This document shows, one piece after another, positions 3,001 to 15,000 of a stretch of 64,000 nt of DNA (positions within the stretch are counted from its first letter, which is position 1; each line of letters begins with the position of its first letter). The DNA is from Halorarum halobium (lineage in GTDB: Archaea > Halobacteriota > Halobacteria > Halobacteriales > Haloferacaceae). The stretch lies in assembly GCF_032116555.1 (NCBI RefSeq), contig NZ_CP134949.1:2728001-2792000 (forward strand), given 5' to 3'. The position numbers were made by a program.

Positions 3001-6000
3001 CGATATATCCATGGTTAACCTGGTCTGCGTTAATTCTTCTCGACGCGGGGGCTCACGAAGAGGAGGTCCGATGCTGGAGACACCGAACCCAGAGTACCTG
3101 TTGCAGACAGCAATTTGAGTATCATCCAACTGTTCTAGCCTGCGAATTCCTATGGGGGTTTCACCTATTCGCCTAATCGGTCAACTAAGGTGGTCATGGC
3201 CAGTCCATACATTACTACAACCGGTAACACCCACATCAACCGATCAATGGGTTAGCACTAACTGACGAGGCGCTAAACAGGACAGTGACCAAAATACTAT
3301 TAGATTATACCCAGGATGGTGAAGCTAACATACTGCTAATGGTGGAAGAAATTCATTCACAGAGGGGCGGCGGGATACATTCAATATGATTAAACTATTT
3401 TGTGACCTGGCAGAGGGGGAGGACTGATGATGGGCCTGGATCTTGACATACCTGACCAAAGAAACTCGTGGGGGACTCTAATAACATATACTACACAAAA
3501 GGAGAAGGAGAAAGTGATTGAATATTTAGGAGAGGAAATAGACAACCTACAGCGCCGAAATATTGGGGATATAGAAGATTTTGACCCCGCAATTGGCGTT
3601 GTGAATTGTGTTGATATTTCTGATAAGAGTGAAATTGTTCTGTCCGAACCTAAGGCAGGAAAGCAGGTAATGGGCTGGGTCAAAACCTACAAAACAGTTC
3701 TCCTCTGTAAGACCTGGCAATGGAAACTCCTCCAAACTCGAGACGGAAGATGGACTAGTCACCTGAACTCAATCCACCATATCTCCGACCACTCACCAAT
3801 TGAGAAGTCCGCACAACACCTCCTCAAAGAAGAAAATATATCGAAAAAGCAAAGCCGACTAGCTATTCACGAATACCTCCAACAAAGGGATCTCTTCACC
3901 GAGTTCCTTGATGAAGCTGGAATTAACCCTAACCGGCTTCAATCTATTATTGACCGAAAAGGGCTTTGGAATCTAAGCGACTCAGAGAAAGCACTCTTAC
4001 TTCGTCCAAACAAAGAACTCCTTCGCTACATAGCCGCTCAAGAGCTAAGAGAACGACAAGGAGGTCGGTTCGCCCGACAAGACTTCGTCAATCTCTTCGG
4101 CGAAATCCCCCGCCAAATCCAATCTAACAGCCAAAGATTCGAAGATATTCTTGAAGAAATGACTATTGAAGAAGGCGATATAGAGGAATTCAGTACAATT
4201 CAGGTTCTAGCAGGCATACTATGTCTCGATACCTTTGAGAACCAGTTGGAGCAAGCCATACGCGATAACCTTGCAAGGGAACCGAGTGACGTCCTTAATA
4301 ACATCGAAGAAGTAGACCGAAGCCAATTCCTGGAACGTTCAAGCTATATCGCCGAGTTTCTGGAGTCAGACCCCACAAGAAGCATCTTCTCAGCACTACT
4401 CACTGCAGTTAATCTAGATGGGATTAGTGGTGGGGATCCGTTCTTAGATATCCTAAAAAGATACCAGATGGAAGTCACGTCCAGAGATAAGGCCTTAGTG
4501 ACGAGACTTCTAGTCGAGAAAATTATTAGTGGGGACTACTCCTCTTCAAAAAACCACAGCGTGATAGCGGACTTCTTAGATGAAGATGGACCGAAAATAG
4601 TTCTCCTATTAGATGGTCTCCCACTCGCCACCCATGAAACGGCAGGATTCCTGTCTGAAAGGAAAACGGACGAGCGATGGGAAATTCAGCAGGCAATCGC
4701 CCCAATCCCGTCAGTAACGGAGATGTTTCGATCTTCCCTCAGCAGCGAATTAGACTTTGACGACTTAGGTGGATTTACTGATGGCGAAGATGGACTAGCA
4801 GGACTTGATTTAGATGCATTTCTCGGAGATGAAAAAGAGGAGGAACTCTTCGAAATGCTTCAGAATGGTGATTCAGTAATCATATACAACGCCGACATCG
4901 ATCAGGGTGCACGCTACCCTACAGATATTCATCGGAAGATAGACGCTCACTTGAGAGAAAATATCCCAGAATTTATACGAAAATACGGGGACCACGCTGA
5001 TATCTTAATCACATCAGATCACGGAATGGTCGAAACGCTTGAGTCGGAAGCTATTCCACGACCCACAGAAGCGAATCAAAGGGGAATGAGTCACTGTCGT
5101 GGAACATTTGTAGACGACGTCGATGAAATAAGGGGGGAACTCTCAGATGACACGGTAAGTTATATTGAAGTGGGATTACCAGACAGTGATGAGAATTGTG
5201 TGATGCTAAATCCTAACAACCCTAACGCGAAGTTTGGGACTCAAAGCTCCGACCTTTGGATTCACGGCGGAGTTTCTATAGAGGAGTCTGTTGTTCCTGT
5301 CGCAATTTGGAGGGGTGTATGAGATGTCTTTAAACAAACCTATGCCGAAAGGAGGTTATCGCACTATACTTGAAATCGTGAATATCCTAGGAGGTGAGGG
5401 AAGTCAATCCGTTAGAGACCTAGTATCAGAGCTTGACCAATTTGGCTACAGAATAGTTCAGGATGACAGTGGAGAAGACCATAGTCCTGCCCTCAGCCCA
5501 GGAGGACACACCTACTCTGAGATCACTCAGCTCCTGAACTTTGTAGAAGCTAAAGGTGATGACCCTCTAGATACTGAACTCAGTTTAACAGAAGAATCAG
5601 AGAACAACTTCGGCACCAAGACAAGCGGCAGAAAAGTCTACGATATTTTATCTACCGATAAATTAGATGATGAGACAAAAAGAGGAGCTGTTAGCGCATT
5701 AATACTCTCTCTTCTCTGCGAAGCCGATATTGATACCTCAAATGTGACTATTCCCAACGCATTCCGGACCTTCCTAACTAAAGTATGGGAACAAAAGGAT
5801 AAGTCTACAGGTCGTTATCAAACAAACTGGAGAAAAGACAACACGTACTTCAAAGATATCCTAACCGATCCTGAAATATCTGAGGACTGGAACGAAGAAA
5901 AGCTTCGCCACTGCGCAACAAGAGCTATTGACCTCGGTGTTTGCCGGCGCTCAGAAAGAGGCGGCAGCTCAGACCTCATATGCCCTGTACTTGTTGAAGA

Positions 6001-12000: not shown

Positions 12001-15000
12001 GGAGTCGGCTCTCTAATGATGAAACTCGACTACTCGTTGGAAAGCGAGAGAATGATGGTATCATTATTAGAAGAGCAGGATGACGACCAATTCTACTCCG
12101 TCTCAAATCTCCGAGAAGACCTATACGAAGAGCTGAAAGAATACTACGTAAAGCAACCTTACACATATTTGGAGGACGAAACGCTCTCGCAAGGCCTCTT
12201 CTCGCAGCTAGGTGCTCTAGCAAATCCTCTCGACAAAGGCAACCATCGGAAATTGTGGGATGCAGGGATTCTCAGTGTTAGACCCGAGTCAGAAAACGAT
12301 GAAATCAACCTCATAGCGAACGAGATCGTGAAAATTCTGGCGTTCAAACCCCATACTGATCTGGATCAAAGTAATAGCATCAAAATCGATTCTCTAAAAT
12401 CTAAACTCTCAAACTCGGTGCCGACCTATTTCGATTCAGCACCTGATCTTGACGCGAAACTTGACGAAGCACTCTCCGTCTTGGAGCAAGCAGACATTAT
12501 TAGCCGAGAAAGAGAGCGGTCTAGCGATGAAGTCGTAACTATCCTCACCCTGAGAAGGAACTTCCTCGAGCTAGATGTTCAAAAAGAAGCCTGTGTTTGC
12601 GAATTTTGTTATTCAGGATGGCCATTCTGGGATAGAAGTTACTGTCCAGACTGTGGCGAGCACTTAGTCGAAGTGGACCGGGATTCATACGATAAAGTCG
12701 AATTCGACCAGGAAGAGTACTCACTAGACCACTGGGGAAATGTGGTCCTCGGTCACGGAGTTGATCCTCTCGTAAGTGCAGTGCATAAGGCCGGTATAAA
12801 GACCGATACTCGGAATAAAATCGAAGAAGGGTTCGGCGCAAATCCGCCCAAGATCAACGTAGTATCAGCTACAAACACCCTGGAGCTCGGCATAGACATA
12901 GGAACTCTCGATTGCATCGCCGGGCTGGGTATTCCACCTACAAAGACAAGCTATGTCCAGCGAGCTGGTCGTACTGGACGTAGCTTAGACCAGTCCTCAA
13001 TGGTGTTCACGGTTGCTCGTCCTCACAACGCCGTGGATAACTTCTATTTCGAAGATATAGAAAGTAGATTCCTCAATGCACCTTCCAAACCGGTACAGAT
13101 CAACCACCTCAATTACGATATCCTTAAGACACAGGTGATGTCCGAGGTACTCACATATCTGAATCTGAACGATCTCGACTATGGACGATTTGAGCGGTTC
13201 AAAACGGGCCAGGATATTGACGATGTGATTAATGAAGTCTACGACGGTGTAGAAGCATTACTGGATACTGTCGATGAAAATCAAGACTCTATCAAGGAGC
13301 ACTTGGAAGGTGCGTTTAAATCGGGTGAAGAGGACCTTGAACAAGCATTAGAAGATCTGTTTGAGAGCCCGTCTGAAGTAAAACAGCGTGTGCTTCGCCG
13401 ACTTTTCAAATTCTACACAACCTTCCGGGCATTGGAAAAGGAAACTGGCCAGGGTGCTCAGGGTCTCAGAAGGCGGAGAGTCATCCAGGAAGAAATTCTT
13501 CAGGAACTGGAGAGGGAAGTTGGATACCTGCCAATGCTTCTGTCCAGTGCCGGAATGATCAGCCAATACCGTTCCACCGAGGATTCAGTAGCGCTCTTCC
13601 GAGAAAAGGAAAGTGAGGAAAACGGTCAAGTCCATCTCAGCTACGAATCCAAGAGCGTCTCACAAGCATTGAGAGAATCATATCCAGAAGCAATGGACAC
13701 CTATGGAGGAGTCGACTACGAGGTTGTGAGTGCACAAGTTAGTCGAGATGAAATTTTCTCCACCAGCGTTTGCACAAACCAATTATGCACTCTTCCCTAC
13801 AATGAATACCCTGCCTTAGAAGTCTGCCCGCTCTGTGGAGATGACTTAGAGGAAATCAGCGTTCACGAATACTTGGGAGCGGTGCTCAAATCATCCAGAT
13901 CCAGAAAGAGAACACGGCCGCTGATAATGCGAGGTGTTGACTTTTGACTGAGTTCTCCGAGAACTTCGAAGAAGCACTTGACTTGGACGAAGACGAGATA
14001 GAAGGAGGTCTAACACGAGACGCCGAAACACTGGATGAGACATACTTCAAGGATCTTCACATCCGCTTCGTATCTAACCTGAAAGTTCGAAGTACCGTGC
14101 CCAAAGTCGAAATTAGCTATTTCTCCAACAGCAACGTCGAAGACGCAAAAGGAGATATCCTGAAATTTGAAGATGGGGAAGTGAAATGGGATCACGCTAT
14201 TCCCGGTCATCAACATCCAACCGATGGGATCGTCTTTCTACATAGAATCGAAGATCTCAGATCGAAGCTCGGATCGAATGATAACAGGAAGGCAATTACA
14301 GCTGCATACTCGGCCGGATATGGACTTAGATCTATAATTTCTAGAAATCTCGGTGTCGACAGCTTGGATATCCAGTGTTCTGTAACAATGTCTCAACGGT
14401 TTATTCAGCTAATTGTCTATGACGCCGACGTAGGCGGAGCAGGATTATCCCACGCAGTCTATCAGGACTTAGAAGAGTTCCTATGGGAAACGAGAACCGC
14501 TCTGGATGATTGTGTCTGCCCGGATTTCTGTGAACAATGTCTCCTCCTACCACGAACACCCACACATATCATTGAAGAGGGGCTTCTGAATCGGTTTGAT
14601 GGCCTAAAGTTCCTCTCTGACTGACTCGATACAAAGCTTATTCTCGATGTCGTGTTGTTTGAGCGTCATGACACTATCTGGTAGCATGTTCCGGGCTGGA
14701 TTCCCCGAAAAAATACGATCTCTCAGACACCCTGATTCTCGTCAATCAATTCGGCTACCGGACTTTCATCTCTGGACTAAAACTTAGTGGTCGAGTCTAC
14801 TATACCGACTGAACCCTCCTTGAGAAGTAGTTTCTTTCGCATCCACAAAATGCGCATCACCTGTTTCCATACTTCGCAGGTGGGTAGTCGGTCAAGCGTC
14901 CGTGAGTAGCTTGATAGTTTATGTATTACTCTCTAACCATCAGTGACCGTACCAAGCCCTCGATGAACAAGCGATGCAGAGCTGCTGTGTTCCTGGAAGT

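Follow-up and report, generated by a model that had tools for sequence, protein, structure and literature searches.

A five-gene cassette in a low-GC island

The window, a 64,000-nucleotide stretch of the Halorarum halobium genome (G000), holds five genes read in one direction. Open reading frames at 3427–5322, 5324–6319, 6322–10086 and 10108–13947 agree with the four genes of an earlier note on this DNA, but the cassette it called four-gene actually has five: a gene for an MZB zinc module (13944–14624) overlaps the stop of the helicase gene and is present in 10 of 10 loci. GC content is low, as the note had stated, at 43.7–46.9% per gene and 46.2% across 3427–14624, against 68.2% for the contig, and dN/dS values of 0.08–0.15 indicate purifying selection on each of the five genes. 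The absence of a methyltransferase also held, as none of the 57 acidic open reading frames of the 70-kb island carries a DNA-methyltransferase motif. Four DNA sequencing runs cover the stretch, in pieces only, and no RNA run is among those listed.

The edge of the cassette was also considered as a special recombination site, a reading that we rejected: the join at 3189/3190 showed no informative repeats and fits better with a local loss of about 670 bp by comparison with L080. The island ends showed no convincing repeats or flanking tRNA.

PglZ, the candidate nuclease

The first gene (3427–5322, plus strand) encodes a 631-aa PglZ-family phosphodiesterase, recognised by the PADLOC and NCBIfam PglZ models; the PADLOC score of 3.6e-7 was reproduced, the match covering residues 500–625. 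The protein stops right past its catalytic domain, as does the PglZ of type 3 BREX. Conserved family-wide in the alignment are D396, T431 (T/S), D492, D531, H532 and H613, which include the equivalents of the Thr and His that type I BREX PglZ requires to act as a nuclease. A profile search with the cassette PglZ found PorX, in which we take the His four residues after the counterpart of D492 to be a metal ligand; the cassette PglZ has Arg there, at a position that varies within the family. That family is small and distinct: a search of 1.84 billion representatives gave 7 clusters at E<1e-30. A separate group of 14 PglZ matches confined to the C-terminal part (frames of 810–833 aa) was left out of the analysis.

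With most metal-site residues intact in the alignment, PglZ is the one conserved candidate nuclease of the cassette. No PLD match lies within the four genome loci, the nearest being about 27 kb off, in G306. Weak matches point to possible PD-(D/E)xK-type genes near some loci, a 391-aa VRR_NUC-like gene in G313 and a NucS-like gene in G155; these differ between loci and sit outside the conserved operon, and they could be the actual cutters there.

The winged-helix protein and the AAA+ ATPase

The second gene encodes a 331-aa protein. Its longest frame opens at TTG 5291, and homologues begin at ATG 5324, which gives 5324–6319 on the plus strand. The winged helix noted earlier is borne out by a predicted model (pLDDT 75) that contains at least two, at residues about 10–125 and 137–221, and matches a MarR-type wHTH with Z 8.3 (rmsd 2.4, 77 aligned). 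The protein had been described as having no family in PADLOC or Pfam; this largely stands with NCBIfam included, the only matches being two marginal ones (E 0.013 and 0.022). A Foldseek search with the model returned nothing at E<=0.001, BrxA was not among the best 50 matches of a wide search, and the ESM Atlas gave no usable match. The gene holds the locus position of DpdG/BrxA-type DNA-binding subunits, and the protein, with several wHTH domains in its modelled fold, could correspond remotely to BrxA.

The third gene (6322–10086, plus strand) encodes an AAA+ ATPase of the ORC/Cdc6 clade, 1254 aa long and acidic in its tail, which by fold class would be of the BrxC/DpdHI kind. The upstream start proposed for it is correct by our analysis: the 112 added residues hold Walker A (GAQATGKT, residues 83–90), align in 8 of 8 rows and have a dN/dS of 0.16, and both Walker A and Walker B are invariant in the family alignment. 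The ORC/Cdc6/BrxC-type fold was likewise recovered, with Z 12.4 to ORC2 (rmsd 5.4, 260 aligned) and Z 9.8 to BrxC 9zll (rmsd 6.5, 339 aligned); ORC, Cdc6 and TnsC all score above BrxC, and Foldseek matches have E 1e-4 to 1e-3. The ATPase is without a family in PADLOC and Pfam, as claimed, and in NCBIfam. In one subclade residues about 980–1240 form a gene of their own. The ESM Atlas yielded generic AAA/STAND clusters only, and no relative was found on viral contigs.

Homology of these two proteins to the G and H proteins of BRIGADE-type loci found no support in profile–profile comparison, which gave a probability of at most 27%, against 94–98% in a control comparison of BRIGADE type I with type II; comparison with the proteins of a G131-type cassette gave no support either. 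Among the window proteins none matched PADLOC DpdG or DpdH.

A YprA helicase with a split-off MZB gene

The fourth gene (10108–13947, plus strand) encodes the 1279-aa core of a YprA-family SF2 helicase, with invariant motifs I, II, III and VI and several CxxC clusters. The PADLOC scores reported for it were reproduced (DruE 1.3e-36, DpdJ 1.5e-34). It is 28–29% identical over about 1400 columns to ARMADA-like helicases of BRIGADE-I-type loci, which were so called by architecture and not by accession, and its clade is sister to these with support of 99–100 in trees of haloarchaeal helicases that included no Druantia sequence. Each of the four genomes (two candidates scored in each) has a single YprA-type match at E<=1e-30, and tblastn found no second defence-type helicase copy in G000.

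The fifth gene (13944–14624, plus strand; dN/dS 0.08) encodes a 226-aa MZB/DUF1998 zinc module (Pfam MZB 1.5e-10, above cut-off). It matches residues about 1406–1600 of the BRIGADE-I-type helicases at E 1e-17 to 1e-20 and is the split-off C-terminus of the YprA helicase, comparable to DrmB in DISARM.

An adjoining, predicted 7-deazaguanine modification module

Immediately before the cassette, on the plus strand, lie four genes of preQ0 synthesis: queD (6-carboxytetrahydropterin synthase, 458–913; Pfam PTPS 1e-19, the sole genome copy at E<1e-6), queE (radical SAM 7-carboxy-7-deazaguanine synthase, 913–1686; best NCBIfam matches are QueE models, 3e-27, below cut-offs), folE (GTP cyclohydrolase I, 1688–2296; NCBIfam FolE above cut-off, Pfam 4.5e-53) and queC (preQ0 synthase, 2293–2988; TIGR00364 above cut-off, Pfam QueC 7e-76). 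A minus-strand part of this module, module A, starts with a 223-aa gene whose 5' part is in the window (1–349) and which is also found at 6 of 8 other DpdA loci. It runs on upstream, outside the window, on contig C1 of G000 with a 967-aa dpdA product fused to a DUF6884/DpdC-like domain (2724694–2727597), a second TGT of 344 aa (2723520–2724554), a 298-aa gene (2722627–2723523) and a BrxD-like ATPase of 385 aa (2721470–2722627; PADLOC BrxD 4e-12), all on the minus strand. The dpdA protein reaches 281 bits with the NCBIfam DpdA model (cut-off 200) and 2e-75 with that of PADLOC, with DUF6884 above cut-off, TGT at 5.6e-26 and PADLOC DpdC at 1.9e-6. Both TGTs carry catalytic-Asp and zinc motifs; the 344-aa one scores best against the archaeal tRNA TGT model, below cut-off.

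DpdA is above cut-off in G000 and G155, and G306 and G313 hold instead a TGT-family module B, whose large TGT carries DUF5591, which we take to be a domain of archaeosine synthase. DndB/DpdB (PF14072) had no match in any of the four genomes (96–99.9% complete), so the deazaguanine insertion step needs a substitute. The island copies of queC, queD, queE and folE are the only ones in G000, which has a separate TGT homologue, probably a housekeeping copy, at C1:657703. In G155 and G306 a second queC lies elsewhere, so that the cassette-side copy is extra; G000, G313 and G131 have no queC besides the island one, which may therefore also serve tRNA. The adjoining 7-deazaguanine module, overlooked in the earlier note, can explain the missing methyltransferase.

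Linkage and exchange between genomes

The five-gene order is kept in 4 genomes and 6 metagenome contigs, contig L085 having been left out as a weak partial match. Genes of a TGT/que module flank the cassette in all four genomes and in five of the six contigs, a linkage that spans about six independent lineages and two unrelated module types, which track two helicase subclades. The nearest module gene is 0.4 kb away in G000 and G155, and one small gene intervenes in G306 and G313. No cassette without a module was found among loci with readable flanks, L082 possibly excepted, where no module gene lies in the 1.4 kb upstream and 0.7 kb downstream.

The same modules adjoin BRIGADE-type loci; in G008 and G307 identity is 74% for DpdA and 85% for the TGT. 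In G131 the modification module is 92.8% identical at the DNA level over 10.6 kb, and the slot past queC holds a different ATPase–YprA–MZB cassette; effectors thus appear exchangeable. Among eight further DpdA loci, two have the module without a YprA cassette and one more lacks a helicase in the stretch read. DpdA passes the cut-off in 51 of 401 genomes, a count that misses module B. At a BRIGADE-I-type locus a 305-aa gene considered as a PLD proved not to be one; a gene of 148 aa encodes the small PLD of that locus.

A proposed mechanism and its rivals

We propose, with a probability of about two in three, that the locus encodes a defence system akin to restriction-modification, built of two modules and belonging with Dpd and BRIGADE, a reading that builds on gene content, conservation, motifs, folds and linkage and from which we infer the individual steps. 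PreQ0 would be made from GTP by FolE, QueD, QueE and QueC, and DpdA would put it in place of guanine at a sequence motif of host DNA, the role of DpdB being filled by the second TGT with the BrxD-like ATPase (in module B, a GHKL ATPase); the DUF6884/DpdC-like domain may convert preQ0 further. The five cassette proteins would form the effector, in which unmarked DNA would be bound and scaffolded by the winged-helix protein and the BrxC/DpdHI-type ATPase, translocated or unwound by the YprA helicase together with the MZB canopy encoded apart from it, and nicked or cut by PglZ, in the role ascribed to PLD nucleases in Dpd and BRIGADE. Linkage in 4/4 genomes and 5/6 contigs with two module types counts for this reading, as do the modules shared with BRIGADE-type loci, the different cassette in the G131 slot, the extra queC of G155 and G306, the sister helicases, the lack of a PLD match in the four loci, the conserved Thr and His of PglZ and the purifying selection. 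The clustering of unrelated systems in defence islands and the module seen without a YprA cassette count against it, and so do the missing DndB/DpdB, the winged-helix protein and ATPase with no profile similarity to BRIGADE-type G and H, the Arg of PglZ at the likely ligand position, the possible PD-(D/E)xK-type genes, the sole queC copies and L082.

It is rather unlikely that the cassette is a stand-alone defence with no self mark, its split helicase sensing DNA structures such as overhangs or replication intermediates and the module adjoining via a common insertion hotspot. DISARM DrmAB is activated by 5' overhangs, according to the portion of PMC9142583 available, the split helicase plus MZB resembles the DISARM layout, modules and cassettes are shuffled among genomes, and modules are common in such islands, to judge from the number of genomes with DpdA above cut-off. 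Yet the cassette adjoins a module in every one of the four genomes, with module types tracking helicase subclades, and no module-free cassette turned up where flanks were readable, again with the possible exception of L082. Quite improbable is a function of the TGT and Que genes that marks no DNA, either tRNA modification (archaeosine supply) or a deazaguanine placed on a cassette protein as a switch. The 967-aa protein above the DpdA cut-off with its DpdC-like domain, the separate TGT at C1:657703 and the second queC of G155 and G306 speak against this, whereas the que and folE copies confined to the island in G000, the tRNA-like score of the 344-aa TGT and the DUF5591 of module B would fit it. 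The accessible text of 10.64898/2026.10.19.760177 also counts for it, as it speaks of a TGT-family enzyme that deazaguanylates protein. The fallback of the earlier note, a BREX-like cassette served by a methyltransferase in trans, we consider very improbable: PglZ and a BrxC-type ATPase are indeed the BREX core, and weak PglX-model matches occur elsewhere in 4/4 genomes, one of them to a 1214-aa NPPW protein that plasmid C2 of G000 encodes, but the PglX cut-off is passed in none of the four, the gene of the C2 enzyme is accompanied by a PLD-helicase gene of its own, no BrxA match (PF08849) lies near the loci, and the deazaguanine module consistently adjoins. BrxB had no match at the cassette.

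We regard the locus as a probable anti-virus system of salt-loving archaea whose self mark is a modified guanine and not a methyl group, and in which unmarked DNA is probably attacked by a helicase and a BREX-kind nuclease. More tentatively, deazaguanine modules may be a fixed chassis for unrelated plug-in effectors, the DpdA/TGT complex both writing and reading the mark, as PglX does in BREX, and a BREX-like PglZ/ATPase machine, joined with a YprA motor, being exchangeable with a PLD-type or other cassette while specificity stays unchanged. If so, a hypermodified base would license the PglZ nuclease of this cassette, and the complete marking pathway would come with it.

What PglZ does in BREX is understood only in part, and restriction of unmodified DNA by Dpd-type systems is described as still unexplored in the available text of PMC12707154. 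A natural system with PglZ in the place of PLD, on a marking module that PLD-type systems also use, lends itself to a direct swap, which would test PglZ as the cutting subunit and whether specificity resides in the marking module or the effector. Deazaguanine would join methylation and phosphorothioation among the self marks that go with PglZ; the BREX survey, in the text available, proposed such a mark for BRC from the TGT gene alone (PMC12839542).

Comparison with known systems

Each part of the locus is known; we did not find their combination described. The locus comes nearest to BRIGADE/Dpd, with PglZ replacing the PLD nuclease, and DNA modification and a defence role are inferred for it. 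BRIGADE types I and II are predicted haloarchaeal Dpd-like systems with a PLD, occasionally PD-(D/E)xK, nuclease nearby, usually two YprA helicases, and DpdG and DpdHI/BrxC homologues among their components, as given in the available text (bioRxiv 10.1101/2025.09.15.676423 = PMC12458937). As there, a 7-deazaguanine biosynthesis and insertion cluster adjoins a haloarchaeal locus with an ARMADA-like YprA helicase, and a winged-helix gene precedes a large ATPase gene. In position and fold class the products of these two genes could correspond to DpdG and DpdHI/BrxC. Unlike BRIGADE, whose main text makes no mention of PglZ, the cassette has PglZ in place of the PLD nuclease, one helicase split into core plus MZB instead of two, and a winged-helix protein and ATPase not detectably homologous to BRIGADE-type G and H; G000 has neither a DpdJ-like second helicase nor a DNA2-like fusion.

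The BREX-Related Capture system (BRC) shares PglZ, an ORC/Cdc6 ATPase, a winged-helix protein and the lack of a methyltransferase, and in the text available its TGT is proposed as the self-marking enzyme, no DpdC having been found by its authors (PMC12839542). A HerA/FtsK translocase is a constant part of BRC, which has a STAND NTPase as well and in some cases a GNAT; its main text mentions YprA, DUF1998 or MZB nowhere. In the present locus a YprA helicase with MZB is the motor, the five genes include no HerA/FtsK translocase, and they are accompanied by a full que/dpdA/DpdC-like module. A weak DUF87 match 15 kb off in G000 and a HerA beside NurA in G306 are not conserved parts of the cassette.

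The cassette order wHTH–ATPase(-tail)–helicase resembles dpdG-H-I-J of canonical Dpd. With that system the locus shares, as far as the available texts go, the DpdA transglycosylase, a DpdC-like domain, the preQ0 pathway and a YprA helicase (PMC12839542, PMC12707154, YprA preprint); it differs in having no DpdB/DndB match, two TGTs and a PglZ, in that DpdD/E/F/K are never the best match, and in keeping DUF1998, which the YprA preprint describes as lost there. A PglZ without C-terminal domain is shared with BREX type 3, and an ATPase whose fold class fits BrxC and PglZ as likely nuclease with BREX more widely, on the portions available of PMC12839542 and PMC12205998; in place of the PglX/BrxXI methyltransferase, BrxL or BrxHII of types 1, 3 and 5 there is a YprA helicase. 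Nor does the locus have the PT genes that take the place of the PglX-type methyltransferase in type 4 BREX. Like DISARM, the cassette has a YprA helicase and a DUF1998 module in a separate adjacent gene, as in DrmA/DrmB, but no methyltransferase, DrmC/D/E or PLD. Druantia shares the YprA helicase, DruE being the best PADLOC score; DruE models match the helicase and MZB proteins only, other Dru models match no cassette protein, and no C-terminal nuclease is fused.

The description as a BREX–Druantia hybrid without methyltransferase stands in that the cassette is rare, conserved and probably defensive and pairs PglZ with a BrxC-type ATPase. It does not stand in that a Dpd-type module that could supply a self mark adjoins the cassette in all four genomes, the helicase is sister to ARMADA-like YprA helicases of BRIGADE-I type, and there is a fifth gene. 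We therefore read the locus not as a methylase-less BREX–Druantia hybrid but as a rare variant of Dpd/BRIGADE-type restriction-modification that uses PglZ.

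A five-gene cassette on a low-GC island

The four co-oriented open reading frames described in the earlier note were recovered at 3427-5322 (PglZ), 5324-6319 (winged-helix protein, wHTH), 6322-10086 (ORC/Cdc6-type AAA+ ATPase) and 10108-13947 (YprA helicase), and the PADLOC values given for them were reproduced. The count of four has to be amended, as an open reading frame had been missed at 13944-14624, with a four-base overlap at the stop of the helicase gene; its product is an MZB/DUF1998 protein of 226 aa. The proposed upstream start of the ATPase is confirmed: the 112 added residues hold the Walker A motif, align in all eight homologues and are under purifying selection, as are all five genes (dN/dS 0.08-0.15 against L080, a metagenome contig with the whole cassette).

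The MZB/DUF1998 profile matches residues ~1406-1600 of eight haloarchaeal YprA helicases of 1557-1615 aa (E 1e-17 to 1e-20), and the 1279-aa cassette helicase aligns to residues 1-1350 of the same proteins. Because the two match separate parts of full-length helicases, they represent a YprA helicase divided between two genes; according to the YprA preprint (10.1101/2025.09.15.676423), such a split is the rule in DISARM and occurs sporadically in other systems.

PglZ conserves D396, T431, D492, D531, H532 and H613, with a single one of the 27 family rows showing Ser at T431; the position four after D492 is Arg in the window protein and His in some relatives. Its profile matches PorX weakly (E 0.002), with the SDHG and HGG motifs aligned. 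In type I BREX PglZ, the equivalent Thr and His are reported to be required for phosphodiesterase and nicking activity (PMC12205998), the equivalence of T431 being one of motif position, not structure. Like type 3 BREX PglZ (PMC12839542), the window protein has no C-terminal domain. The model of the wHTH protein (pLDDT 75) has two winged-helix regions. For that of the ATPase (residues 1-560, pLDDT 67), ORC/Cdc6 is the top match (Z 12.4) and BrxC is the one that aligns over the most residues (339; Z 9.8, rmsd 6.5), a predicted resemblance that gives the class of the protein and not its family.

The cassette has a GC content of 46.2%, the surrounding island of ~70 kb 55%, and the contig 68.2%. 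This low-GC element (G000, the host genome, C1 ~2692800-2763300; in the window up to ~35300) carries an integrase, TrbL/VirB6, ArdC-like and SSB genes, a DUF87 ATPase and several TFIIB genes, and is probably an integrative conjugative element; neither a tRNA gene beside it nor repeats at its ends were found. It also holds a separate defence gene, an OLD-family ATPase-TOPRIM nuclease (23327-25555, minus strand; PADLOC Old 1.5e-69; 47% GC). Upstream of the window, at L001:2494-3537 (plus strand) and ~10 kb from the modification module described below, lies a 347-aa NucS-like PD-(D/E)xK protein whose best PADLOC match is PDC-S11. A plasmid of the same genome encodes a 1274-aa PLD-helicase with two NPPW methyltransferase-like frames of 625 and 1214 aa (G000:C2:136634-146555), probably a separate restriction-modification system.

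A putative deazaguanine modification module

Directly upstream of the cassette are queD, queE, folE and queC (458-2988). Transcribed away from these, and for the greater part beyond the window, are genes for a 223-aa protein, a 967-aa DpdA, a 344-aa TGT, a 298-aa protein and a 385-aa BrxD-like ATPase. DpdA scores 281 bits against an NCBIfam cut-off of 200 and has a C-terminal DUF6884/DpdC-like domain; both TGTs of this module retain the motifs for the catalytic Asp and for zinc. These genes comprise the preQ0 pathway and a DNA-transglycosylase-type enzyme.

TGT and que genes adjoin the cassette in all four genomes that carry it, as module A in G000 and G155 (DpdA, TGT, 298-aa protein, BrxD-like ATPase) and as module B in G306 and G313 (TGT-DUF5591 fusion, DUF6884, second TGT, GHKL ATPase; read at L084:1135-6479 and L025:3159-8381). 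Module B may install a different, archaeosine-like deazaguanine in DNA. In the close relative L080, a queuosine-salvage gene (Q_salvage, PF10343; 7564-8598) lies between queC and pglZ. Across the whole of G000, the island copies of queC, queD, queE and folE are the only ones found, so the supply of tRNA archaeosine may depend on a mobile island.

Distribution and apparent exchange of effectors

The family is genuine, rare and narrow in range. PglZ matches occur in 18 of the 401 genomes of the class and are near full length in four (G000, G155, G306 and G313), the other 14 covering the C-terminal part in longer frames; the ATPase profile retrieved the same four genomes from three whole families (2/257, 1/232 and 1/152). 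Against 1.84 billion representatives, the PglZ profile gave seven clusters at E<1e-30 (624-651 aa), the next match falling at 7e-7, and the ATPase search returned 21 proteins. One family member, P0023 (648 aa), is 9% lysine, unlike its lysine-poor relatives, and the family may reach beyond Halobacteria. A metagenome scan added seven loci, six with the whole cassette, and gene order is the same in all ten cassette loci, with the ATPase tail a separate gene in four. Module genes precede the cassette in contigs L079, L080, L081 and L084; in L083 a fragment of a module-B-associated gene lies upstream and one of queC downstream, and the short flanks of L082 hold no module gene. L079 and L080 share ~93% identity with the window, and L084 closely resembles G313, so the loci amount to about six independent lineages.

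Genome G131 shares module A at 92.8% DNA identity over 10.6 kb (91-99% in protein), ending just past queC, and has no match to the window-type PglZ. In the slot after queC stands another five-gene cassette (L100:1871-12152): proteins of 388 and 255 aa, both probable HTH proteins from weak matches, a 1136-aa AAA ATPase, a 929-aa DpdJ-like helicase and a 710-aa protein with a weak MZB match. Genome G376 has the same build (L098:1733-12001), and G220 also carries the helicase and MZB-like genes. No recognisable nuclease was found in this cassette, which is possibly a further undescribed Dpd-like type. Over 6.2 kb of module, G131 and L080 are 98% identical, and the shared sequence runs on between the genes until shortly before their differing cassettes. 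In another genome (G084:C1 ~87000-108000, L106-L107), module A has no YprA cassette beside it; its neighbours there are a long prokaryotic Argonaute, a GHKL protein and a UvrD/PD-(D/E)xK helicase-nuclease.

A proposed mechanism and its alternatives

We propose, at a probability of roughly two in three, that the module marks host DNA with 7-deazaguanine and that the five-protein effector attacks DNA lacking the mark; every biochemical step is one that we infer. The module would write 7-deazaguanine into host DNA, the wHTH protein and ATPase would serve as sensor and scaffold on unmarked DNA, the YprA-MZB pair would be the motor, and PglZ would act as the nuclease on unmarked DNA.

The cassette could instead be a mark-independent structure sensor with which the module shares a hotspot, a considerably less probable reading. 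Among eight further DpdA loci, chosen as most had no helicase match there, a YprA cassette was present in five; one has genes of the G/H type and no helicase over the part inspected, and two have neither, so the module can stand without a YprA-type cassette. DpdA exceeds the cut-off in 51 of 401 genomes, and the true module background is larger because this count misses module B. No cassette without a module was found among loci with readable flanks, and module type tracks two helicase subclades where readable. That the Que/TGT genes act on tRNA or protein is somewhat more doubtful still; a second queC lies elsewhere in G155 and G306, and the island copy is the only one in G000, G313 and G131. 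Least probable by some distance is a methyltransferase serving the cassette in trans: as the earlier note held, the locus has none, no methyltransferase motif having been found in 57 acidic open reading frames of the ~70-kb island, and none of the four genomes with the cassette has a PglX match that exceeds the cut-off.

Comparison with known systems

A system that pairs PglZ with a TGT and lacks a methyltransferase is already published as the BREX-Related Capture system (BRC), which is defined by HerA/FtsK, without DpdC, and whose main text has no mention of YprA, DUF1998 or MZB (PMC12839542). In the literature searched, mostly by title and abstract, no paper was found to combine PglZ and a YprA helicase with deazaguanine marking; the supplement of the BREX survey, which lies outside that scope, may bear on the point. 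BRIGADE, the haloarchaeal Dpd-like systems, is defined in the YprA preprint as a deazaguanine cluster with DpdG, DpdHI/BrxC, a PLD or PD-(D/E)xK nuclease and, as a rule, two YprA helicases; its main text does not mention PglZ, and four accession prefixes of the cassette loci are absent from the portion of Table S1 examined (10.1101/2025.09.15.676423).

The helicase profile matches in 67 of 401 genomes. Ten of these neighbourhoods were inspected, and eight were type-I-like and two type-II-like BRIGADE, as assigned by architecture; all ten hold at least part of module A or B in the stretch inspected (queD alone in G327). Directly after the helicase, the BRIGADE-I-type loci carry a conserved ~300-aa gene (L061:14280-15197 and relatives) of no Pfam or PADLOC family, which is not the PLD. 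In trees of haloarchaeal sequences only, with bacterial ARMADA and Druantia absent, FastTree with 28 rows unites the cassette helicases (100) and places them beside the type-I-like ARMADA-like helicases (99), and IQ-TREE on 671 core columns and 23 rows gave the same two splits, both at 100. The cassette wHTH protein and ATPase have no detectable relation to BRIGADE-type G and H (probability <=27%), whereas the control, type I against type II G and H, gave 94% and 98%; PLD has no match in the four genome loci. On the strength of these trees, these comparisons and the absence of PLD, the cassette has its helicase and putative marking module in common with BRIGADE and appears to differ from it in its proposed scaffold pair, the wHTH protein and ATPase, and in its candidate nuclease.
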